Positions 5,977 to 41,222 of a stretch of 41,222 nt of DNA are shown here, one piece after another (position 1 is the first letter of the stretch; every line of letters begins with the position of its first letter). Below the pieces are notes generated by a model. That model was not told where the DNA came from, did not search any database, and saw only the letters and a list, made by a program, of their open reading frames with translations. The translations under genes were made by a program, and so were the position numbers. Location of the stretch: positions 1 to 41,222 of IMG/VR virus record IMGVR_UViG_2588253749_000003, one strand, 5' to 3'. Source of the stretch: a virus. Its lineage: Duplodnaviria > Heunggongvirae > Uroviricota > Caudoviricetes.

Positions 5977-6105
5977 CAGCCGTTAGATTTTGCCGGGCTG
6001 GAAAGCGCCTGTATAAACTCACTGAAGCTGAGAGCTTCTTCGCCTTTGGCAAGGCCTTCGAAGTATTCTTCGTAAGCCTTTTCCATGATTGTGTCGAAAT
6101 CCATA
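5977..6105 (-). CDS. Hypothetical small acidic protein (42 aa, below the track's 60-aa cutoff)
   Basis: Hand-translated MDFDTIMEKAYEEYFEGLAKGEEALSFSEFIQALSSPAKSNG; start 1 nt after stop of upstream ORF. Confidence 0.3.
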
Positions 6106-6261
6106 TCACTCACCTGAGTTTCTTTCCAGCCAGCGACGGGCACCATTTTCGGTTTTAAACGTTTTGCTTTTGGTATACGTCATCGCGGTGAACGTACCGT
6201 CCTGGTTGGGGAACACGCCACATACCAGAGATTCGTTGTTGCCAAGATCGATAGTATCCAT
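6106..6261 (-). CDS. Hypothetical small protein, first gene of leftward early operon
   Basis: ORF 6106-6342 in track; ATG at 6261 with GAGG SD (MDTIDLGNNE...) preferred. Confidence 0.4.
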   Translation of the reverse strand: MDTIDLGNNESLVCGVFPNQDGTFTAMTYTKSKTFKTENGARRWLERNSGE

Positions 6262-6442
6262 GCTGACCTCATTTCCCCTTAACGCCGGGGTAGCGGAACA
6301 AAAACCTGCTGCATAGTTATTAAAGTTGAACCCTGCCGTCATGTTCTTACGCCTCGGGCTGGCTACTTAACCCCTGACCACTGCCTGGTAACTCGAGGTA
6401 TTGCCCTGTATTGTGTGGGACGGGATGGGTTGGTATGGGAAA

Positions 6443-6485
6443 ACTATAGGAAATGCCTAATTACTTGTCAATAGGCTATGCCTAA
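6443..6485 (-). promoter_or_regulatory. PL-like leftward early promoter with operator palindrome
   Basis: Minus-strand TTGACA (6472-6467) and TATAGT (6448-6443), 18-nt spacer; adjacent 13-bp palindrome TAGGCTATGCCTA (6473-6485). Confidence 0.55.
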
Positions 6486-6579
6486 TAATTTGGGCGCAAC
6501 CTAATAGGTGATGGTTTGTGGAAGAGGTAGTAGGAGTTAACTAACGGGAACTAGGAATTTCCCGTCGGACCATATAAGT

Positions 6580-7056
6580 TTAAGTTCCTGTCTTGGTGAT
6601 GTTCTGGCTTTTCCGTTTTGATTCTTGATTTTTCAGATAGTTAGCTACCTTCATTTCCATTGCGGCAATGTAGGCGCGAACGTCATGATCAACCCAACTA
6701 GGCTCCGTAGCATTTCCAGATAAGATGAAAGCCACAATTGCTCTTTTTTCATCAGAGGCGGCTTGATAAAGGCTGTTTATGTCTAAAAGTTCACTTTTTG
6801 TATCTGAAGTGGATGGGGTTGGTATGGGGTATTCGTTAAGCCCCCAATGCTCTGGACCAACCACATCAGAAAAGAAACGCCATAGTTCTGGAAGTTTGTC
6901 TTTACTTATCGAACCTTTCTTAATCCAGTCATGGATTGATGGTGGTTGGACTTTGAAATGACGTGCGATTTCCGCCTTTGATTTGACGGCTCCTGATGCA
7001 ATTTTTTTGTTAATGGCCTGCTCTATCGCTCGGCCTAAGTCTTTACCACTAAGCAT
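6580..7056 (-). CDS. CI-like phage repressor (XRE-family HTH)
   Basis: 158-aa ORF divergent from cro-like gene; N-terminal HTH-like region; operator-rich divergent intergenic region. Confidence 0.72.
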   Translation of the reverse strand: MLSGKDLGRAIEQAINKKIASGAVKSKAEIARHFKVQPPSIHDWIKKGSISKDKLPELWRFFSDVVGPEHWGLNEYPIPTPSTSDTKSELLDINSLYQAASDEKRAIVAFILSGNATEPSWVDHDVRAYIAAMEMKVANYLKNQESKRKSQNITKTGT

Positions 7057-7110
7057 TGCTTAATAGTCTCCTATGCGCATCGCGTTAGGCAATCCCTACT
7101 CTCGATGTAT

Positions 7111-7153
7111 TAGGCATAGCCTATTGACAATTTCATTAGGCTAAGCCTAATAT
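7111..7153 (+). promoter_or_regulatory. OR/PR-like region: two operator palindromes overlapping a rightward sigma70 promoter
   Basis: TAGGCATAGCCTA (7111-7123) and TAGGCTAAGCCTA (7137-7149); TTGACA at 7124-7129 and TAATAT at 7148-7153 (18-nt spacer) upstream of cro-like ATG 7181. Confidence 0.6.
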
Positions 7154-7180
7154 TGTTGCGTGTTTTTTGGAGTTCATTCG

Positions 7181-7504
7181 ATGAAAAAAGATAACTATTC
7201 ATTCAAACGAGCTTGTGCTGTTGTCGGTGGGCAATCAGCAATGGCTAGGCTTTTAGGTGTATCTCCTCCAAGCGTAAATCAATGGATCAAAGGTGTACGT
7301 CAGTTACCTGCTGAGAGATGTCCTGCGATTGAACGAGCAACAAAAGGTGGTGTCCTGTGTGAAGAACTTCGTCCTGATGTTGATTGGACATACTTACGAC
7401 GCTCGTCATGTTATTCGCAGAATATGTCGATGAAGCAACCAAATGACGAAAACGATCATACCCGAAGCATCAAGAGGCAAATGATTCATGAAAATCAAAC
7501 ATGA
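7181..7504 (+). CDS. Cro-like / YdaS-like HTH regulator
   Basis: ATG 7181 with GGAG SD; HTH-like QSAMARLLGVSPPSVNQWIKG; divergent from repressor. Confidence 0.7.
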   Translation: MKKDNYSFKRACAVVGGQSAMARLLGVSPPSVNQWIKGVRQLPAERCPAIERATKGGVLCEELRPDVDWTYLRRSSCYSQNMSMKQPNDENDHTRSIKRQMIHENQT

Positions 7505-7913
7505 GCACATCCGCATGGCGATGAATGCCTGGGCATACCCTGATGGTGAGAAAGTTCCTGCAGCTGAAATAGCCCGGACTTATTTCGAACTGGGGATGAC
7601 GTTCCCTGAACTGTATGACGACAGCCATCCGGAAGCCCTGGCTCGCAATACCCAGAAAATTTTCCGCTGGGTAGAGAAAGACACCCCTGATGCAGTTGAA
7701 AAAATTCAGGCGTTGTTACCAGCGATCGAAAAGGCAATGCCACCTTTGCTGGTGGCCAGAATGCGCAGCCACAGTTCAGCTTATTTTCGGGAGCTGGTGG
7801 AGATGCGGGAGCGACTGGTGAGAGACGCTGATGATTTTGTCGCAGTGGCAATCGCCGGTTTCAATCAGATGAACCGTGGTGGCCCGGCAGGAAATGCTGT
7901 GGCAGTACATTGA
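7488..7913 (+). CDS. YdaT-like (CII-like) regulatory protein
   Basis: 141-aa ORF overlapping cro-like stop; N-terminus MKIKHEHI... and size recall Rac YdaT-family proteins (from memory). Confidence 0.55.
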   Translation: MKIKHEHIRMAMNAWAYPDGEKVPAAEIARTYFELGMTFPELYDDSHPEALARNTQKIFRWVEKDTPDAVEKIQALLPAIEKAMPPLLVARMRSHSSAYFRELVEMRERLVRDADDFVAVAIAGFNQMNRGGPAGNAVAVH

Positions 7914-13774: not shown

Positions 13775-14328
13775 TCGTAAATATGATATACCCGGAAATT
13801 ACAGGCAAAAGCGGCGAGCATTTACGTCTAAAAACGCTGGAAGCCGTCTGGATCCAGGGGAAATTACGGATGTGGGGGCGTTGGTCGTACATAGGTGGTG
13901 GCAAACCAGGAAATATGTTCAATCAGTTGCTGGCATCCAAAACACTTACAAAAACTGCGATCAATGAAGCTCTGCGCAGAATAAAAAAATCAGGGATTGA
14001 TAAAACTGAGCTGGAAGCGTTTTTGCGTGAGATGATCAACAGCAAGCAAAAGAGCGGGCTGGCTTATTGTACTGATGCCGAGGCGTTATGTATCGATCGG
14101 GTAATTAGTGAAGTGTTGGCAGAGCATCCGGGATTGATTTGTATCCTCCGACAAAGATATGAAGGGCTGGGTATGAGCAAGCTGAAAATGGCAGAACAGT
14201 TAAAAAAGAATCACCCTGACTGGAGCCTGAAAACTTGTAGAAATCGCATTGATGTTTGGTTGGCGATGGCTGAAACCATGCTTTTCCTTCCAATGTGCGT
14301 GGCACTTCGGTGCTTTTCTGATAACTGA
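13771..14328 (+). CDS. Late-gene antiterminator Q-like protein
   Basis: 185-aa ORF directly after rusA and upstream of late genes; call mainly positional, start codon uncertain. Confidence 0.5.
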   Translation: MIVNMIYPEITGKSGEHLRLKTLEAVWIQGKLRMWGRWSYIGGGKPGNMFNQLLASKTLTKTAINEALRRIKKSGIDKTELEAFLREMINSKQKSGLAYCTDAEALCIDRVISEVLAEHPGLICILRQRYEGLGMSKLKMAEQLKKNHPDWSLKTCRNRIDVWLAMAETMLFLPMCVALRCFSDN

Positions 14329-14357
14329 TGATAGAAGTGCATCAGCTATCAATCTTG

Positions 14358-14386
14358 TTGACGTTCATCAAGGTCTGGACAATACT
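14358..14386 (+). promoter_or_regulatory. Candidate sigma70 promoter for the ATPase/RloB-like module
   Basis: TTGACG (14358-14363), 17-nt spacer, AATACT (14381-14386), about 30 nt upstream of ATG 14418. Confidence 0.35.
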
Positions 14387-14417
14387 TACGTTAAGTTCCA
14401 ACATATGGAAGATAAGA

Positions 14418-15608
14418 ATGATATTTACACGATTGAGATTTATCAATTTGTACGCTTTTGAGGATGCAGAGCTTAACCTGTCCTATCCAAGGAAACCTGT
14501 AAACATGCCTCTTGATGGGGAGTTTTTGGCTGGACGGCCTAAATTTTACTATAAAAAAGTCTGTATCATAACGGGGGGAAATGCTTCAGGTAAGACGTCA
14601 CTAGGGCGAATTCTTTGTGGAATTCAGGTGTTTCTAAGAACCAAAGAGTTGCGGAGTAATCTGCGAGTGAATAATAAAAATAATGATGCTTCGTTTGAAG
14701 TGGACTTTGCTACGGAGGATCATTTTCATCATCGTTTGTATGTACGCTTTGCTACCAGTGAAGGCGGAGCGCACATAATCAAAGAAATTAAATATGGTTT
14801 TGTTCAAATAGCATTAAATGATTCTTGCCATAAAACCACAGAAAAACTGAATCAACTCTTTTCTGGAAGGGCCCCAGAAGATACAGAATATTTTTTTCAG
14901 GAACTAGCTACTGATAGCGAACCAGTTGTATTGGAGTTTTTCAAGCAACTTAAGTTTTTTGGTGGATGGTACTATTTGTTGTCTGAAACTAAAGAGAGTA
15001 CCACTGCAATTTCAGGAATGAATAAAAATATTCTTGAAAGGATAATTCGCACTTTCGATTCAAGTATTATAGGAGTTACCGAGATGCTGGAGTCTGAAAG
15101 TGACGGGGATGAAAATAAATCATCTGCGGTTTATCTGATTAAATTTAAAAACTCTGATTCTCTTGTCGTTACCAGTAAAGGTGAAATAATTAACTCAGAC
15201 CGTCTTTCTCGAGGAACATACGAGGCAGTGACGGTAGCGCATTTTATAAGCGCTATTATCTCTGATTGTGAAAGACTAGGTAAGCAATCTCTAATACCAT
15301 CAATGACTTATTTTCTTGACGAGAAATTGGCTTATACACATTCAGAGTTAGAGCGTATGATTGTGGCGCTGATTATATCTAATTTGAAAGAAAATACTCA
15401 GTTTTTCTATACAACGCATAACATGGATATTTTTGAGTTGGATCTGCCTGTTCATTCGTTCATTTTTATTAAAAAAACGAAAGACTATTCGGAGTTTGTT
15501 GAAGCAAATTCAGTTGTTAAAAAAAATGACCGTAGCATGCGAAACGCTGTTGAGAGAGATGTCTTTGGTGTCTTACCTGACACATCATTAGTATCGGAGC
15601 TACTCTGA
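14418..15608 (+). CDS. ABC-type (AAA_21/OLD-like) ATPase, candidate defense component A
   Basis: Start MIFTRLRFINLYAFED (typical RecF/SMC-like N-terminus); Walker A GGNASGKTS (14574-14597); signature-like LSRGT; Walker B YFLDE; H-loop FYTTHN; visibly AT-rich. Confidence 0.75.
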   Translation: MIFTRLRFINLYAFEDAELNLSYPRKPVNMPLDGEFLAGRPKFYYKKVCIITGGNASGKTSLGRILCGIQVFLRTKELRSNLRVNNKNNDASFEVDFATEDHFHHRLYVRFATSEGGAHIIKEIKYGFVQIALNDSCHKTTEKLNQLFSGRAPEDTEYFFQELATDSEPVVLEFFKQLKFFGGWYYLLSETKESTTAISGMNKNILERIIRTFDSSIIGVTEMLESESDGDENKSSAVYLIKFKNSDSLVVTSKGEIINSDRLSRGTYEAVTVAHFISAIISDCERLGKQSLIPSMTYFLDEKLAYTHSELERMIVALIISNLKENTQFFYTTHNMDIFELDLPVHSFIFIKKTKDYSEFVEANSVVKKNDRSMRNAVERDVFGVLPDTSLVSELL

Positions 15609-16141
15609 TGGCGGGGTTGTCTAAAATAAGAATAATTTTTGTCGAAGGTGAAACAGAAAACTCTCTTTTTCTGAAGATGAAACAACAGAGAGTTATTGAT
15701 GCCAAATCAATTGTAAAAAGAAACTTTTGGCAAGAGAGCATAAGAAATTATGCGATTACTATTCCGAAGGGAAGTGATATACTAATTGTCTTTGATAGTG
15801 ATGAAGTGGAGCAATCTGCAAGATTCATTGAAAATGTAAAGTTCCTTAAAAACAGAGGGCATAAAGTTTATCTTTTGCAGCAGAAAAGAAATTTTGAGGA
15901 GGAGTTGGCCTGGTGTTGCGGAATTCCTGTAAAAAAACTAATTGCTGGGTTCTGTGCAAAAAAAACATCGGGTATAAATGATTTCAAGAGAGATTTTATT
16001 GCTTGTAACAATCAACTTTCAAAGTTACTGAAAATGGGCATGCAGGAAACTAAGTGGTTTACAAGAGATTTACATGCTGTATTGGAGCCTGTTGCAAGTT
16101 TTAAGTCATCTTTTTCTAAACATTTCAGGTTAACAAGATGA
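15608..16141 (+). CDS. RloB-like / TOPRIM-like small protein (DUF4276-like), candidate defense component B
   Basis: ATG overlaps upstream stop (TGATGG); N-terminal IIFVEGETE motif and downstream ILIVFDSDE (DxD) consistent with TOPRIM-like fold. Confidence 0.6.
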   Translation: MAGLSKIRIIFVEGETENSLFLKMKQQRVIDAKSIVKRNFWQESIRNYAITIPKGSDILIVFDSDEVEQSARFIENVKFLKNRGHKVYLLQQKRNFEEELAWCCGIPVKKLIAGFCAKKTSGINDFKRDFIACNNQLSKLLKMGMQETKWFTRDLHAVLEPVASFKSSFSKHFRLTR

Positions 16142-36010: not shown

Positions 36011-36435
36011 TGGAACTGTGGCTGACGGTGAACGGCAAACGCACCAGTGCCAGCGCACCGCTGGACCCGCTGACCCGCGCCGTGGTGATTTCCCTGTTCA
36101 CCTGGCGGCGGGCGGAGCCTGATGACAACGCCGACGTCCCGATGGGATGGTGGGGGGATACCTGGCCTGCGGTACAGAATGACCGTTACGGCTCCCGACT
36201 GTGGCTGCTTCAGCGCAGCAAACTGACCAATCAGCTGGTGCAGACGGTAAGGGGGTATATCCGCGAATGCCTGCAATGGATGATTGATGACGGTGTGGTG
36301 TCCCGTATTGATCTGGATATCCGCCGCACCGGGATTAATGAACTGGGTAACAGTATCACTCTCTGGCGACGTGACGGACCGGTAATGATTTCTTTTGATA
36401 ATCTGTGGAGTGCGATAACGCATGGCGGACAGTGA
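36007..36435 (+). CDS. Baseplate protein (GP46/W-like)
   Basis: 142-aa ORF, position and size. Confidence 0.55.
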   Translation: MMELWLTVNGKRTSASAPLDPLTRAVVISLFTWRRAEPDDNADVPMGWWGDTWPAVQNDRYGSRLWLLQRSKLTNQLVQTVRGYIRECLQWMIDDGVVSRIDLDIRRTGINELGNSITLWRRDGPVMISFDNLWSAITHGGQ

Positions 36436-37504
36436 ATTTCAGCGCCCGACGCTGGCAGAAAATATCAGTATGCTCCGTAACGATTTATTCGCCAGGCTGG
36501 ACGTCAGTGACCCACTCCGGCGCATGGATGAAGACGTGCGGGCAAAGGTGTATGCGGCGGCGCTGCATACGGTTTACGGTTACATCGATTATCTGGCAAT
36601 GAACATACTGCCTGACCGGTGTGATGAATCCTGGCTGGCGCGACATGCTGCGATGAAACGGTGTCCGCGCAAGGGGGCCACGGCTGCCAGCGGGTATATG
36701 CGCTGGGAAGATGTCAGCGATGACCTGAAGGTGACCGCCGGGAGTGTTATTCAGCGCGATGACCTGGTTCAGTACACAGCAACTGCCGATGCAACCAGCT
36801 CCAGTGGTGTCCTGCGCGTGCCGATCGCCTGCTCAACTGCAGGTGCGGTCGGTAATGCTGACGACGGTACGGCATTAATCCTGGTCACGCCGGTGAATGG
36901 TCTGCCGTCGTCTGGTGTGGCTGATACCCTGACCGGCGGATTCGATACTGAAGATCTGGAAACGTGGCGCGCCCGCGTCATTGAGCGGTATTACTGGACG
37001 CCTCAGGGCGGGGCTGACGGGGATTATGTCGTCTGGGCTAAAGAAGTGCCTGGTATTACGCGCGCATGGACATACCGTCACTGGAGAGGAATAGGAACGG
37101 TAGGGGTGATGGTGGCGACAAACGATCCGGAACATCCGGCTCCGGATGAAAGCGTCATTAATGCAGTCAGAGAGCACATTCTTCCTCTGACACCGGTTGC
37201 CGGAAGCGGATTGTATGTATTCGGTGCCACAGAAAAAGTCATCCCGATGACGATTGCATTATCGAAAGACACACCGCAGATCAGGACTGCAATAAAAGCA
37301 GAGCTGAATGCACTGATGTTACGGGATGGTGTGCCAGAGGGGCGTATGTATCTGTCCAGAATCAGTGAGGCCATCAGTTTGTCTGCTGGTGAAGTGGCCC
37401 ACCGGTTAATCGTCCCTTCATCGGATATTGACCTGGGGGAGACCGAGCTTCCGGTGCTCGGCGAGATCACCTGGCAGGCTTATGACCCGGCAAGGAGTAA
37501 ATAA
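36422..37504 (+). CDS. Baseplate J-like protein
   Basis: 360-aa ORF, position and size. Confidence 0.65.
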   Translation: MADSEFQRPTLAENISMLRNDLFARLDVSDPLRRMDEDVRAKVYAAALHTVYGYIDYLAMNILPDRCDESWLARHAAMKRCPRKGATAASGYMRWEDVSDDLKVTAGSVIQRDDLVQYTATADATSSSGVLRVPIACSTAGAVGNADDGTALILVTPVNGLPSSGVADTLTGGFDTEDLETWRARVIERYYWTPQGGADGDYVVWAKEVPGITRAWTYRHWRGIGTVGVMVATNDPEHPAPDESVINAVREHILPLTPVAGSGLYVFGATEKVIPMTIALSKDTPQIRTAIKAELNALMLRDGVPEGRMYLSRISEAISLSAGEVAHRLIVPSSDIDLGETELPVLGEITWQAYDPARSK

Positions 37505-38463
37505 TGGATTCGTTACAGGATGATTATAAAAAGCTGCTGTACGGACTGATGCCGCCGGGGCCTGCATGGAGCGATACCGACGGCGTGCTTGATGGTCTGG
37601 CACCATCGCTTGTACGTGTTCATCAGCGGGCTGATGAACTGATGGCTGAAATCGATCCTGGTCAGTCAACAGAGCTGATTGAACGTTATGAAGAATTGTA
37701 TGGTTTACCTGACACCTGCTCTCCTGTTGGAGCCCAGACATTACGCCAGCGTCAGCAACGGCTGGAAGCAAAAGCCAATGTGGCTGGTGGCATAAATGAG
37801 CAGTTCTTCCTGGAGCAGCTTGAGGCGCTGGGATATACCGGCGTGACGATCGAACAGTTCCAGCACCTGGATGCAAGCCCCGATCCGGAATGGGGTGATC
37901 GCTGGCGTTATTTCTGGCGTGTGACGTTGCCGGTGGATGCCGGTGCTCAGTGGCAGACATGTTCGGACACCTGTAACACACCGATCCGGACGTGGGGTGA
38001 TACGGTTGCGGAATGCGTGATTAATAAATTATGTCCGTCGCATACTGTTGTCCTTTTTGCATATCCGGATGAGTCTGGTGAAGTGCAACAAGCCGCCCTG
38101 ACTATAAACAGCCTCTCCTTTCAGGCCGGACACAAGACGACTGAGCCATTAGCGATTAATCATACAGGTGTTCATTTTGCGGTTGTTCCGGCACTGACAG
38201 GTAAGCCGCTGACAATTAACCGGATTAACTTTTATGCCGCCCGTCCGATGGCAGAACCACTGGTACTCAGCAGGGCGCAATTGCACTCAGGTCTGCCGAC
38301 AACGGACCCCATGACCATGAACAGCGCACAGTTGCAGACGGGATACAGGACCCGCTCCCCCGTACCGGTTAACAGTATGCAGTTGCAGACAGCCAGCAGA
38401 ACCCGTGAACCGTTATTGATTAATCACCCGGGACTGCATTTTGCTGTGGTCACGTCCGAATGA
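37504..38463 (+). CDS. YmfQ-like (DUF2313, Mu gp48-like) tail protein with C-terminal repeat extension
   Basis: 319-aa ORF; C-terminal half has two EPL(A/L)INH(T/P)G(V/L)HFAVV repeats and two NS(A/M)QLQT repeats. Confidence 0.55.
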   Translation: MDSLQDDYKKLLYGLMPPGPAWSDTDGVLDGLAPSLVRVHQRADELMAEIDPGQSTELIERYEELYGLPDTCSPVGAQTLRQRQQRLEAKANVAGGINEQFFLEQLEALGYTGVTIEQFQHLDASPDPEWGDRWRYFWRVTLPVDAGAQWQTCSDTCNTPIRTWGDTVAECVINKLCPSHTVVLFAYPDESGEVQQAALTINSLSFQAGHKTTEPLAINHTGVHFAVVPALTGKPLTINRINFYAARPMAEPLVLSRAQLHSGLPTTDPMTMNSAQLQTGYRTRSPVPVNSMQLQTASRTREPLLINHPGLHFAVVTSE

Positions 38464-38486
38464 CATAAAATAAAAGGAGAGCCGCT

Positions 38487-39119
38487 TTGAATATTATTAA
38501 ACTCGAAAGTTTTCGACAAATTCCGGCGAATGAGGGATTGTGCGAGAACTATTATTCAACAAATATTATTTCAGCACTGAACGAAAACGGTGTCACGCTT
38601 ATCAATGATATGTCCGGTTCTGTAACATCCGTCTGTCGTGGCACTCAGGCCGTAAATACTGTAGAAAGAACGGGGCTGATTTTTACGACACCCTCATATG
38701 TCACACTGTACAGCACACTTCCGGACTTAAAAGCCTCAGCTGTACAGCTGGGATTTCGTCTGACATTAAGTGCGGGAAAGAAATATTCATCTTCGCCATC
38801 CCACATCAGGATTAATGGCTATTCATTTACAACCCCGTATCCTGATGAAGCAGCCAGTTATTACTATGAAATTTTCGCAACGCGAAACGAAAACGGCTAT
38901 GTCTCAGCCAGTCTGTACTGCAACCGCTCATTAGTTGGAAATACATCGTTTTATGTACCAGATGACCGGACTGACAAAATTCAGGTGAGTATTGGTGGTG
39001 GTAACAATATTTTTTCATCGGGTGCATCCGGCACGTTAATGCTGGGTGATATGTACTGTGGAACAGTGACATACGGTAGAAATAATAGTGCAGAAACCCG
39101 CCCTGCTCGGAAGCATTGA
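38487..39119 (+). CDS. Hypothetical tail-associated protein
   Basis: 210-aa ORF in visibly AT-richer segment between baseplate and tail fiber genes. Confidence 0.4.
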   Translation: MNIIKLESFRQIPANEGLCENYYSTNIISALNENGVTLINDMSGSVTSVCRGTQAVNTVERTGLIFTTPSYVTLYSTLPDLKASAVQLGFRLTLSAGKKYSSSPSHIRINGYSFTTPYPDEAASYYYEIFATRNENGYVSASLYCNRSLVGNTSFYVPDDRTDKIQVSIGGGNNIFSSGASGTLMLGDMYCGTVTYGRNNSAETRPARKH

Positions 39120-39537
39120 GGTCAGATACAGCCCGGTAACGGCATTTACCGGTGGAAGCGCCAAAAACTCACTGAATAAAGATATTGTCACGGGGCTGAA
39201 CACCTCTGACAGCGAGGCCGGATATCTGATGCTCTCGCCGTCCCTGAATGCCGCACAGGCCACGTTTGGTGCGGTGGATAACGTCAACAGTGATGTTGTG
39301 GCCGTTATGGCCTCGGTCACTTACCGCGGTGCTGATGCCCCCAATAACCGCCTGGCCTGGAAAGTGAAAAATGGCAGCCATGCAGGCGCAACGATTACAG
39401 AGAATGGCGTACAAAGCGACACAAACAGCTGGACGACTGTCTCACAGAGTTTTATGGCCCAGCCAGGCGGAGAAACGCCTTTCACAAAGGGTGAACTGAC
39501 TTTCACAGCGGAATTGTTTAATCAGGCAAGGACATAA
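39088..39537 (+). CDS. Hypothetical protein (GTG start; overlaps upstream ORF by 32 nt in another frame)
   Basis: 149-aa ORF; may be separate gene or frameshifted continuation. Confidence 0.3.
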   Translation: MQKPALLGSIEVRYSPVTAFTGGSAKNSLNKDIVTGLNTSDSEAGYLMLSPSLNAAQATFGAVDNVNSDVVAVMASVTYRGADAPNNRLAWKVKNGSHAGATITENGVQSDTNSWTTVSQSFMAQPGGETPFTKGELTFTAELFNQART

Positions 39538-39567
39538 TTCTGATATTTAATTCACGGGAGGTTTAAT

Positions 39568-40677
39568 ATGCACAGAATTGACACTCCGACAGCAGTTAAA
39601 GATAAATTTGGCCCGGGCAAGAACGGATTTACTGACGGGAATATTCGTACAGGGCGTCATGCCACCTGGCTGAACAGTGCCATGTGGGATGCCCTTCAGG
39701 AGGAAATCTGTGGTGTCATTGAGAAGGCCGGGATAAAACTGAATAAAGAGGAACACGACCAGTTATATAAAGCCATATTATTACTGGTTGGCGGTGCAAT
39801 TAACGAAGAGGCATTGCTGATAAAAAATAATCTTTCGGATGTCGAAGACAGTGATGAGGCTGTTGAAAACCTCGGATTAAAACCCACGGTGGATAAGGCA
39901 AAAAATGCCGTTCAGCGTGATGGAGACACCATGACCGGGGAGCTGAAAATCAGTGGTGTTAATGCACTGAGGATTTTCAACGAAGCCTTTGGTCTGATTT
40001 TTCGTCGTTCGGAAGAGTGTCTGCACCTCATTCCTACCCGGGAAAATCAGGGCGAGAGTGGTGATATTGGGCCGCTACGCCCCTTTACGCTTAATCTCAG
40101 GACCGGTCGCATAACTATGGGACACGGTCTGGATGTTACAGAAGATGTATTTGCAGGCCGTTTAGCGATTAACAGCAGTAACGGAACGTGGATTCAGATG
40201 CGTGACAACAACGTTATTTTCGGGAAAAACAGGATAAATACTGATGCTGCTCAGGCGCTTCTGCGTCAGGATCATGCAGACAGAAAGTATTTCCTGGCTG
40301 GTCTTGGGAATAAGCAGTTTGGCATTTACATGATAAATAATAGCCGTACGGATAATGGTACGGACGGTCAGGCGTATATGGATGATGCGGGAAACTGGCG
40401 ATGCGGGCGTCAGGTTATACCGTCAGACTACGGAAACTTCGATGCCCGCTACCAGACCAAAACAGGTGGCGTACAGAATTTTCAGTATACCAGTGAGGTG
40501 TTTTACAACCCGGGCGGGAACGAGCACAGCTGGACGTTTCGAGCACCTTCTGGTTGTGTTTTGTCAGGCATTAATGTTCAGGATACTGGCCGTAACTCTG
40601 CAGACAATATCGGTGGCGTGTATTACAAACAGGCTCAGATTTATATTAATGGTGCATGGCGATCTGTATCAGGTTAA
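39568..40677 (+). CDS. Tail fiber protein
   Basis: N-terminus MHRIDTPTAVKDKFGPGKNGFTDGN... typical conserved tail-fiber N-terminal domain of enterobacterial prophages. Confidence 0.7.
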   Translation: MHRIDTPTAVKDKFGPGKNGFTDGNIRTGRHATWLNSAMWDALQEEICGVIEKAGIKLNKEEHDQLYKAILLLVGGAINEEALLIKNNLSDVEDSDEAVENLGLKPTVDKAKNAVQRDGDTMTGELKISGVNALRIFNEAFGLIFRRSEECLHLIPTRENQGESGDIGPLRPFTLNLRTGRITMGHGLDVTEDVFAGRLAINSSNGTWIQMRDNNVIFGKNRINTDAAQALLRQDHADRKYFLAGLGNKQFGIYMINNSRTDNGTDGQAYMDDAGNWRCGRQVIPSDYGNFDARYQTKTGGVQNFQYTSEVFYNPGGNEHSWTFRAPSGCVLSGINVQDTGRNSADNIGGVYYKQAQIYINGAWRSVSG

Positions 40678-40691
40678 TTAAGGAGAAAATA

Positions 40692-41222
40692 ATGGAACTC
40701 TCAAACATTACGCGTTACTACCCTGAAGACATGCCTTATGGTGACGGCATTCAGTATTTCCGTAGTGAAGACGGGCAGGATTTTTATGAATCACTGGATA
40801 AATTCACGAAGAAATACAAGCTGTGCACGCATCCTGAAACCGGCGTTATTTATTCCGTGGCGGAAGATGTATCCCGTCTTTATCCCGTTGGTTTTACCAT
40901 TGTGGAAGTGGATGAACTACCGGATGGTTTTTGTATAGAGGCGCGCTGGTATTATAAAGACGGTGAAGTACTACCGGTCCCTGTTGATTACAGGCAGCAG
41001 GCAGAGTCGGAGCGTGCACGTCTTACTGCGATTGCTGAACGGGAAATATCCGATAAGAAGACGGATTTACTTTTGGGAATCATCGGTGATGAAGAAAAAG
41101 AAAAGCTGACAGTCTGGCGCATTTACGCGAAATTGCTGCAGGCGATGGATTTCAGCACCATCACTGATAAAACCTCATATAACGCCATTGAATGGCCCGT
41201 CTCTCCGGAAGCCTCTTCCTGA
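40692..41222 (+). CDS. Tail fiber assembly protein (Tfa-like chaperone)
   Basis: ATG 40692 with AGGAG SD; immediately after tail fiber gene; ends at window edge with TGA. Confidence 0.55.
   Translation: MELSNITRYYPEDMPYGDGIQYFRSEDGQDFYESLDKFTKKYKLCTHPETGVIYSVAEDVSRLYPVGFTIVEVDELPDGFCIEARWYYKDGEVLPVPVDYRQQAESERARLTAIAEREISDKKTDLLLGIIGDEEKEKLTVWRIYAKLLQAMDFSTITDKTSYNAIEWPVSPEASS

Follow-up and report, generated by a model that had tools for sequence, protein, structure and literature searches.

A repeat-bearing C-terminal extension of a Mu gp48-like baseplate wedge protein, a candidate portable adaptor for a PHROG 8291 protein

A phage is usually retargeted to other hosts by exchange of its fibre tips. 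Anchor-branch systems with multiple receptor-binding proteins (RBPs), as in CBA120, G7C and Klebsiella phages, rely on branching domains of the T4 gp10 type. The baseplate wedge proteins TssG, gp7 and Mup48 are homologous and are present once per wedge; TssG acts as an adaptor by means of two protruding loops, each of which engages a TssK trimer, an RBP-like protein, at its 15 N-terminal residues (PMC6300606). Typical members of the family that holds Mu gp48, E. coli e14 YmfQ and P2 gpI (PF10076, DUF2313) end at about 190-200 residues.

We analysed a 41,222-nucleotide stretch of DNA (the window; IMG/VR record IMGVR_UViG_2588253749_000003), which is a complete prophage, from integrase through tail fibre. 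Its gp48 homolog (gp48-ext, Table 1) resembles the Mu gp48/YmfQ family in the N-terminal 190 residues (PF10076 Phage_Mu_Gp48 match on aa 13-187, E 7.2e-25, 88 bits against a gathering cut-off of 37.4; phrog_203, baseplate wedge subunit, on aa 1-205, E 1.7e-73). The gene also has its canonical place, after gp45, gp46 and gp47 and before a tail-fibre gene (PF06890 at 35462-36010, PF07409 at 36007-36435, then PF04865 and gp48-ext). The encoded protein, however, adds 124 residues of tandem repeats that belong to no family.

Table 1. Features of the gp48 region of the window.
Feature	Coordinates	Strand	Basis and remarks
Baseplate J/gp47 gene, directly upstream of gp48	36422-37504	+	PF04865, E 1e-53
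gp48/YmfQ baseplate wedge protein gene with C-terminal repeat extension (gp48-ext)	37504-38463	+	ORF, 319 aa; PF10076, phrog_203
gp48 core domain, aa 1-190	37504-38073	+	homologous to phiP27 L53
Inserted cassette relative to phiP27 (repeat extension and partner gene)	38074-39557	+	phiP27 alignment gap, 1.48 kb
Repeat 1, aa 197-213, AALTINSLSFQAGHKTT	38092-38142	+	17-aa periodicity, alignment A1
Repeat 2, aa 214-233, EPLAINHTGVHFAVVPALTG, internal cap copy, first segment of the earlier described pair	38143-38202	+	self-comparison, A1
Repeat 3, aa 234-250, KPLTINRINFYAARPMA, missing from the 6-copy relative L034	38203-38253	+	periodicity, A1
Repeat 4, aa 251-267, EPLVLSRAQLHSGLPTT	38254-38304	+	periodicity, A1
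Repeat 5, aa 268-284, DPMTMNSAQLQTGYRTR	38305-38355	+	periodicity, A1
Repeat 6, aa 285-301, SPVPVNSMQLQTASRTR	38356-38406	+	periodicity, A1
Repeat 7, aa 302-319, EPLLINHPGLHFAVVTSE, C-terminal cap, second segment of the earlier described pair	38407-38460	+	self-comparison, A1
Partner gene, PHROG 8291, about 349 aa, TTG start, AAGGAG upstream	38487-39537	+	a 1-nt insertion divides it into two ORFs, 38487-39119 and 39088-39537
Extra A (AA to AAA), frameshifts partner gene	39094-39094	+	alignment to L004; visible in sequence
Tail-fibre gene (ordinary), 369 aa, phiP27 L54-type N-terminus	39568-40677	+	phrog_6859 tail fibre, E 2e-170
Tail-fibre assembly protein (Tfa) gene, reaching window end	40656-41222	+	PF02413 Caudo_TAP, E 1e-21

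The extension and its repeats

A first-pass annotation of the sequence had described a YmfQ-like protein with an extra, internally repeated C-terminal part. The domain matches above bear out the YmfQ-like identity, and the 319-aa ORF and both segments described as duplicated are present where it placed them. That the extension is extra was also confirmed, as gp48-ext does not fit the single-domain size (about 190-200 aa) of the PF10076 family. Nearly all of the 119 homologs that we found were 187-211 aa long, mostly about 193-196, and among them the extension was common only to P0001-P0003 and P0049. Query coverage was at most 62% in all 77 phage records matched by gp48-ext in tblastn; residues 1-195 were 91.8% identical to phiP27 in the same type of search. 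The gp48-ext gene was present at 99-100% identity in 35 complete E. coli genomes.

Residues 197-319 consist of a 17-residue unit, xPLxINxxxLQxGxxxx, that occurs seven times in tandem, with 20 residues in copy 2. The single duplication of about 48 nt reported earlier is real as a pair: EPLAINHTGVHFAVV (aa 214-228) and EPLLINHPGLHFAVV (aa 302-316) share 12 of 15 residues, and DNA at 38142-38186 is 73% identical to 38406-38450 across 45 nt. It is incomplete as a description, however, for the pair is a cap repeat (consensus EPLxINHxGxHFAVV) that occurs at copies 2 and 7 of the seven-copy array. Both of the NS(A/M)QLQT motifs that had been noted were found (NSAQLQT at aa 274-280 and NSMQLQT at aa 291-297). 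Self-comparison upheld the repetition, and the internal similarity of the extension is far above chance: ungapped BLOSUM62 self-diagonals scored 128 at an offset of 17 aa and 91 (best score, 33 residues, copies 1-2 against 6-7) at an offset of 88 aa, whereas shuffling these 124 residues 300 times gave a mean of 24, an SD of 4.4 and a maximum of 48. Tandem Repeats Finder reported no array in the DNA of the extension, so the repetition is old at that level.

Repeat modules that are only 33-47% identical in our module alignment (A1) still share the P, L, I/V, N, L and Q of the motif, and F118 and A119, in the C-terminal cap repeat, are invariant across A1. The (L/V)xFA(V/F) ending was retained in most of the distant module variants; one module (L008) is without it, and two others (L012 and L017) have diverged endings. 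The dN/dS of the extension was 0.34-0.60, in comparison with 0.04-0.14 for the gp48 N-domain, and the extension is thus a maintained coding sequence under purifying selection. The module matched no family in Pfam at E<=10, shaft repeat families included, or in NCBIfam, and comparison of the module profile with PDB sequences gave nothing significant (a single match at E 0.84, to an unrelated gp11). An AF2 monomer model of the full gp48-ext, built on a shallow 28-sequence alignment (mean pLDDT 53.8, whole-protein pTM 0.31), had pLDDT <50 nearly throughout aa 189-319, making the model of the extension unusable. Searches of the literature on YmfQ extensions, phiP27 tail genes, Mup48 and phage triple beta-spirals turned up neither the module nor PHROG 8291.

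A cassette shared between phage backbones

The window aligns with phiP27 from 34237 to 38073, where the phiP27 gp48 gene ends and DNA homology stops, and again at 90% identity from 39558 to 40107, at the start of the phiP27 tail-fibre gene; between 38073 and 39558 there was no alignment to phiP27. The extension and the gene downstream of it, which belongs to PHROG 8291 (the partner), thus constitute one clean insertion between gp48 codon ~190 and the start of the tail fibre. Window positions 38120-39532, equivalent to the extension and the partner, were 97.2% identical to a genuine Mu-like prophage locus that carries com/mom (L002) and is otherwise unrelated to the phiP27-like prophage of the window. 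The second and sole other DNA match between the two, 40480-41005 at 81.6%, covers the end of the fibre and Tfa. Between the gp48 N-domains of the two loci substitutions have reached saturation (dN about 1), and the tail fibres of the loci have unrelated N-termini. We therefore rejected docking of the ordinary tail fibre by the extension, since a 97% identical cassette is found in two backbones with fibres of unrelated N-termini. A match annotated 'protein mom' (H158) was set aside as a deletion remnant within a degraded Mu-like prophage.

Among homologs the repeats are not ubiquitous, nor are they invariant; 58 of 5426 E. coli genomes carry the extension, making this a rare cassette. When searched by tblastn against 50,697 phage records, the extension alone and the intact partner each gave chance matches or none. 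An exhaustive HMMER search of 1.84 billion representative proteins found the module in only eight, always at the C terminus. A word-indexed database of 5.8 billion proteins, searched with the A1 profile, returned only seven proteins and missed known members, and was less informative than HMMER. The anchors to which the module is fused are the gp48 domain, in three lineages; Stf-type PF08400 stubs with or without PF03406 repeats; and a P2-H-type PF12571 stub. Most carriers other than gp48 are lambda-Stf-type N-terminal stubs; in the stub protein of L019 the module spans aa 265-353. Copy number does vary among relatives: gp48 fusions have 6 or 7 repeats, the third gp48 lineage has 4 or 5, and the overall range is 3-7.

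The module is nearly always followed by a homolog of the partner. In 35 of 38 loci this gene lay 1-32 nt 3' of the module gene, and in two more it lay in the same tail cluster. Two sets were tested. In the first, 12 contexts found by way of partner homologs (40-97% identity), 11 had a module-ending gene 1-32 nt upstream. In the second, 26 IMG/VR loci, the spacing was 22-30 nt in 24, the remaining two having the order gp48-ext, fibre, Tfa, partner. A six-frame motif scan of 16 loci and the window located a single repeat cluster in 14 of them, in every case where the gene preceding the partner ends, and none in L003 and L006. In L006, where the partner homolog is 40% identical, there is no clear module upstream, but a 64-aa ORF whose motif is degenerate. 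Module and partner also diverge together, since module identity of 33-47% accompanies partner identity of ~51%, and 87-89% accompanies 81-84%; co-divergence alone is weak evidence, because adjacent genes share history anyway. The module thus moves between phage backbones jointly with the PHROG 8291 gene.

The partner protein and a putative docking role

In the window the partner gene is frameshifted, and its two halves match phrog_8291 profile positions 1-204 (E 3e-142) and 203-349 (E 2e-98). The gene is intact in E. coli E300010 (349 aa) and in ETEC6; the intact allele (protein WP_001021379.1) matches the profile at E 4e-244, and the extra A was found in none of the 52 E. coli genomes having the same stretch. 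The system may therefore be inactive here, or the sequence may hold an error. The intact partner matched no Pfam family at E<=10 and no NCBIfam family. Its AF2 model (pLDDT 91, pTM 0.89) has two beta-sandwich domains, for which the closest Foldseek matches were uncharacterised siphophage proteins of roughly 300-400 aa (TM 0.6-0.67), one of them named 'virion structural protein'. The predicted fold has weak similarity to lectin folds: Foldseek matches in the PDB to concanavalin-A-type folds (legume lectins, X122 domains and BoNT Hc) had E ~1e-5 and probability 0.97-1.0 but TM of only 0.2-0.39 and rmsd of 8-10 A. The first 20 residues of the partner are among its best-conserved stretches, and per-region conservation revealed no hypervariable domain of the kind that marks a receptor-binding tip. 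The partner is probably an accessory RBP.

The pairing of module and partner and their joint movement suggest an adaptor role for the former, with the latter as the likelier host-range determinant. We consider it fairly probable that the extension is a portable C-terminal adaptor which tethers the downstream PHROG 8291 protein to whichever tail anchor it is fused to. The adaptor would be formed by 3-7 'PLxIN...LQxG' repeats of 17 residues in tandem, in most cases with a 'PLxINxxGLxFAVV' cap at the end, and would hold a protein of ~350 aa with two beta-sandwiches. In the window's prophage gp48 would be the anchor, a wedge protein homologous to T4 gp7 and to TssG of the type VI secretion system (T6SS), so that the phage would display an extra protein on its baseplate besides the normal tail fibre. 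From the sequences we infer that module and partner would bind physically, that the partner would be present in the virion and that it would take part in host recognition. The module occurs both on fibre stubs, expected to be trimeric, and on gp48, expected once per wedge, a combination for which no single structural model accounts. Other points against the adaptor reading are the L006 context, the weakness of the partner's lectin similarity, the broken partner gene of the window and the absence of the cassette from isolated phages.

A decidedly doubtful elaboration of the adaptor reading is that the 17-residue unit is a universal docking peptide, that each repeat or cap binds one partner copy or oligomer and that repeat number sets the valency of a lectin 'brush'. 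The number of repeats, 3-7, would then change by unequal recombination, and the brush would sit on a monomeric wedge protein in myoviruses or on trimeric fibre stubs in siphoviruses and myoviruses. If true, this would be an undescribed, anchor-independent attachment system for RBPs.

The repeats might instead be a short fibre shaft in their own right, of the beta-spiral or beta-helix type, with the downstream protein as a Tfa-like assembly chaperone or capping tip. The triple beta-spirals of adenovirus fibre and reovirus sigma1 have a period of ~15-17 residues (15-16 in the adenovirus shaft), a Pro-Leu start and alternating hydrophobics; the 17-residue unit has a conserved Pro-Leu and alternating hydrophobics at positions 3, 5 and 10, as is typical of fibrous beta repeats, but the resemblance is a lead only, with no statistical similarity in Pfam or the PDB. 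The partner gene does lie directly downstream, the usual place of fibre chaperone genes, and on Stf-type stubs the module comes after PF03406 fibre repeats. We nevertheless regard a shaft as unlikely, given that the partner matches neither Caudo_TAP (PF02413) nor any other chaperone family, that the real fibre is served by a separate Tfa gene, and that the predicted 350-aa two-domain beta-sandwich resembles a virion structural protein. Moreover, gp48 homologs are present once per wedge (PMC6300606), unlike a homotrimeric shaft.

The first-pass annotation was right about a gp48/YmfQ protein with an extra, variable extension, but its proposal that the repeats themselves contact the receptor and determine host range is very unlikely. 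A dN/dS 3-10 times that of the gp48 core, the differing copy numbers and the peripheral position of the wedge protein would all suit a receptor-contacting surface. The variation is modest, however, and the positions conserved between distant modules fit a structural or docking element better than a hypervariable receptor site; the module is 97% identical in DNA in two backbones, both times with the partner, and the latter, virion-protein-like and with a weakly lectin-like predicted fold, is the better receptor-binding candidate. It is highly improbable that the extension is a non-functional by-product of a cassette fused in frame to gp48 by chance in decaying prophages. The cassette was indeed seen in prophages only, with no isolated phage carrying it among the 50,697 records, several copies are frameshifted (the partner in the window, gp48-ext in L018), and some of the host prophages are degraded (L003 and L005). 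Against this, the open frame of the extension persists in many stub proteins and in each of three independent lineages of gp48, its dN/dS is below 1, its motif positions are conserved across deep divergence, and the window's own prophage is complete.

If the adaptor reading is true, a self-contained cassette of repeat adaptor and cognate binding protein would represent a different route to host-range retargeting. The cassette grafts naturally onto at least three kinds of anchor, namely gp48 (three lineages), the Stf N-terminal domain and the P2-H-type N-terminal domain, which span contractile and non-contractile tails. Being small and naturally occurring, it would be a model for equipping engineered phages or tailocins with a second receptor specificity. 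For PHROG 8291, and for a repeat family that bears no annotation, it would provide the first hypothesis of function.

Comparison with known attachment systems

Lambda-type Stf (PF08400, PF03406) with its Tfa has, like the module stubs, a functionally linked gene directly downstream. Stf, however, has a long shaft and a receptor-binding tip, whereas the module stubs end after the repeats, and the partner, in contrast to Tfa, is not a Caudo_TAP chaperone. With the anchor-branch systems the proposed arrangement has a common logic, a tail-anchored docking domain with a separately encoded RBP and modular exchange of host specificity. The docking element there is a T4 gp10-like domain, which Pfam searches did not find on gp48-ext or on any module-bearing stub; here it would be a short array of 17-residue repeats. 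Anchor-branch RBPs are tailspikes or depolymerases, while the partner is predicted to be small, built of beta-sandwiches and weakly similar to lectin folds.

The likeness to TssG and TssK lies in the two cap motifs of the window's gp48 homolog and the conserved N terminus of the partner, by analogy with which docking may be envisaged here. The docking elements of TssG are loops inside its C-terminal domain, whereas gp48-ext has an appended repeat array, and the partner is not TssK-like. With these differences, the gp48 fusion would parallel the recruitment of TssK by TssG in type VI secretion, pointing to a conserved logic of the baseplates of contractile injection systems.

The gp48 gene and its C-terminal repeats

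From the integrase through the tail-fibre assembly gene, the window makes up a complete phiP27-like myovirus prophage. Its early region contains a 426-aa AAA_15/AAA_21 (AbiEii-like) ATPase ORF followed by an overlapping 177-aa ORF (14328-16141, + strand); the two ORFs have a DUF968/HNH gene on one side and an N6_N4 DNA methylase gene on the other, and may be a prophage-encoded defence pair.

Genes around the gp48 fusion (window positions)
Gene	Position	Strand	Description
gp45	35462-36010		upstream of gp48-ext
gp46	36007-36435		upstream of gp48-ext
Baseplate_J/gp47	36422-37504		directly before gp48-ext
gp48-ext	37504-38463	+	ORF, 319 aa
partner	38487-39537		downstream of gp48-ext; PHROG 8291, family of unknown function

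gp48-ext is hit by Pfam PF10076 (Phage_Mu_Gp48) at residues 13-187, scoring 88 bits where the cut-off is 37.4 (E 7e-25), and by phrog_203 (baseplate wedge subunit) at residues 1-205, in agreement with the first-pass annotation of a YmfQ-like baseplate protein. Its C-terminal extension is, as also proposed there, an extra part: nearly all of the 119 homologs found are ~193-196 aa long, and in 50,697 phage genome records no record covers more than 62% of gp48-ext, the best match, phiP27, stopping at residue 195 (91.8% over residues 1-195). The extension alone matched none of these records. Of 5426 complete E. coli genomes, 58 contain the extension DNA, and 35 of these have the whole phiP27-type gene at at least 99% identity; the extension is thus neither ubiquitous nor invariant. 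When 1.84 billion representative proteins were searched exhaustively with HMMER, the repeat module of the extension turned up in only 8, and sequence searches of Pfam, NCBIfam and PDB gave no match to it. Homology-based annotation seems to be confused by the extension: in E. coli E300010 (NZ_CM128601.1, locus L004, 6001-6585) RefSeq lists gp48-ext as a 585-nt pseudogene ('missing C-terminus'); that genome has an intact 960-nt frame, the sole change in it being a silent A-to-G at window 38256.

A duplicated segment and two NS(A/M)QLQT motifs had been noted in the extension. Both motifs and the segment pair (45 nt at a spacing of 264 nt, 73% identical in DNA and at 12 of 15 residues in protein) are real, but the description as a single pair was incomplete, because the pair belongs to an array of seven tandem copies (residues 197-319) of a 17-residue unit, xPLx(I/V)Nxxx(L/F)(Q/H)xGxxxx, with three extra residues in copy 2. 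The BLOSUM62 self-diagonal of the extension scored 128 at offset 17 and 91 at offset 88, where copies 1-2 face copies 6-7; after shuffling of these residues, the mean score was 24 (SD 4.4, maximum 48). In distant relatives, the module typically has four ordinary repeats and a terminal cap ending ...GLxFAVVxxx, and the two noted segments are the two cap repeats of the array. Given the distant form, the window array reads as a partial internal duplication, (1 repeat + cap) + PALTG + (4 repeats + cap). TRF found no DNA-level tandem repeat in the array, which argues that it is old. Copy number varies within lineages: gp48 fusions have 6 or 7 copies (L034 versus L002), and a third gp48 lineage has 4 or 5, with different repeats duplicated in L036, L037 and L038. 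The AF2 monomer model of the extension was uninformative (pLDDT below 50).

The partner gene and its pairing with the module

An extra A at 39094 (AA to AAA) splits the window partner into ORFs 38487-39119 and 39088-39537. None of the 52 E. coli genomes with that stretch has the insertion, which is therefore a private mutation or a sequencing error. The partner family is small (27 clusters at 90% identity), and its source-named clusters are all from E. coli, bar one from Raoultella; we found no Pfam domain in its members and no member among deposited phages. The AF2 model (24 homologs; pLDDT 91, pTM 0.89) has two beta-sandwich domains. Its Foldseek matches at TM 0.6-0.67 are uncharacterised proteins of siphophages, roughly 300-400 aa long, one of which, from Achromobacter phage AchV4, is named a 'virion structural protein'; those to legume lectins, X122 domains and the binding domain of botulinum toxin are weak (TM 0.2-0.39). 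The first 20 residues of the partner are among its most conserved.

Every carrier of the module is a tail anchor, namely one of three gp48 lineages, an Stf-type PF08400 stub (with or without PF03406 repeats) or a P2-H-type PF12571 stub. The contexts compared below were reached from partner homologs spanning 40-97% identity.

Carriers of the module in the compared prophages
Locus	Carrier	Repeats	Partner
L005	remnant Stf-derived protein, lambdoid LT-II prophage	5	51% identical
L008	lambda-like Stf stub	4, no cap	363 aa
L010	uncalled stub ORF, Raoultella	5	382 aa
L012	Mu-like; normal 194-aa gp48, fibre, Tfa, then Stf-N stub with module	3	370 aa
L015, L016	phiP27-type gp48-ext, 87-89% identical	7	81-84% identical
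L017	third gp48 lineage, acidic linker	3	343 aa
L018	third gp48 lineage, Ig-like insert	4	354 aa
L019	Stf stub	5	362 aa

The module ended 1-32 nt before the partner start in 11 of 12 contexts (including the window, L002 and L004). The exception was L006, whose partner is the most distant homolog (40% identical). Before it lie (L006 6002-6988) a 257-aa Stf-N stub, whose C-terminal domain is a different one, and a 64-aa ORF with no more than a degenerate 'LPLVIKHAVVSVGH' motif, possibly an adaptor that is free-standing or has decayed. Among IMG/VR loci, the module was 22-30 nt upstream of the partner in 24 of 26, and the remaining two had the order gp48-ext, fibre, Tfa, partner. In L027 and L028 (1521-5053), which have this order, module and partner are non-adjacent within the same tail cluster, and the C-terminal part of gp48-ext has 6 matches to the repeat pattern. 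A six-frame scan of 16 loci and the window detected one repeat cluster each in 14, always ending the gene upstream of the partner, and none in L003 and L006.

The L010 Stf-N stub (~6039-6983, Raoultella planticola) is absent from the source annotation, and its frame is open. The gp48-Ig-repeat fusion of L018 (3861-4978, E. coli) is frameshifted into 138-aa and 257-aa ORFs; the fusion is intact in P0123, L036, L037 and L038. Besides its diverged module-partner pair, the degraded lambdoid prophage L005 has genes for heat-labile enterotoxin type II (6367-7512; Enterotoxin_a + LT-IIB). From their names, the E. coli strains ETEC6, ATCC 43886, TD225-C4 and E2528-C1, which carry the extension with the partner, are presumably ETEC or diarrhoeal isolates; their records give only host or source.

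Transfer of extension and partner between backbones

Homology to phiP27 stops at 38073 (gp48 codon ~190) and restarts at 39558, with the start codon of the tail fibre 10 nt further on; 38074-39557 is therefore a clean 1.48-kb insertion of the extension and the next gene (the cassette). A nearly identical extension is found in P0049 (324 aa, 143 member sequences) on a gp48 domain diverged to dN ~1, encoded in L002, a genuine Mu-like prophage that has com/mom. Strong DNA homology of the window to L002 is confined to 38120-39532 (97.2%), spanning the extension and the downstream gene, with a further 81.6% patch at the fibre end and Tfa. The tail-fibre N-termini of the two backbones are unrelated, and so the extension is matched to the downstream gene, not to the fibre.

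At window 40480-41005, the tail-fibre C-terminus and the first part of Tfa are ~81% identical to their counterparts in the otherwise unrelated Mu-like L002 and L012; this stretch is another mosaic joint in the fibre region, independent of the first. The related L012 (6391-8113) and L002 (11810-12148) attach the cassette differently: in L012 the stub and partner follow Tfa, and in L002 gp48-ext and the partner precede the fibre, with only a truncated Stf-N pseudogene after Tfa.

Interpretation and comparison with known adaptors

The evidence best supports a reading of the repeat array as a portable docking adaptor, which would tether the partner protein to whichever tail anchor carries the fused array. 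In the window prophage, the gp48 fusion would place an accessory, probably glycan-binding partner on the baseplate beside the normal fibre. Here we infer that module and partner bind, that the partner is incorporated in the virion and that a receptor is recognized. It is unlikely that the repeats instead make up a short fibrous shaft for which the partner serves as chaperone or tip, and there is only a small chance that the repeats bind a receptor themselves, the role suggested at first pass. Very improbable, in our estimate, is a fusion that arose as a neutral by-product in decaying prophages; dN/dS was 0.34-0.60 in the extension versus 0.04-0.14 in the gp48 core, indicating that the extension is maintained as coding sequence and changes faster than the core does, and its conserved positions are the motif residues.

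For a docking adaptor, the principle of modular attachment of receptor-binding proteins is already known. The known examples (anchor-branch RBPs, TssG-TssK and gp7-gp10) are built from other parts. Literature and family-library searches gave no description of the repeat module or the partner family, nor of their joint transfer among gp48, Stf-type and P2-H-type anchors. TssG, a homolog of Mu Mup48, P2 gpI and T4 gp7 that is present once per (TssF)2-(TssG)1 wedge unit, 'acts as an adaptor': each of its two protruding loops pushes hydrophobic residues into a cavity that the first 15 residues of TssK form in an RBP-like TssK trimer (PMC6300606). TssG-TssK is a direct precedent for an adaptor on a gp48 homolog, and the conserved first 20 residues of the partner may be set beside the TssK N-terminus.
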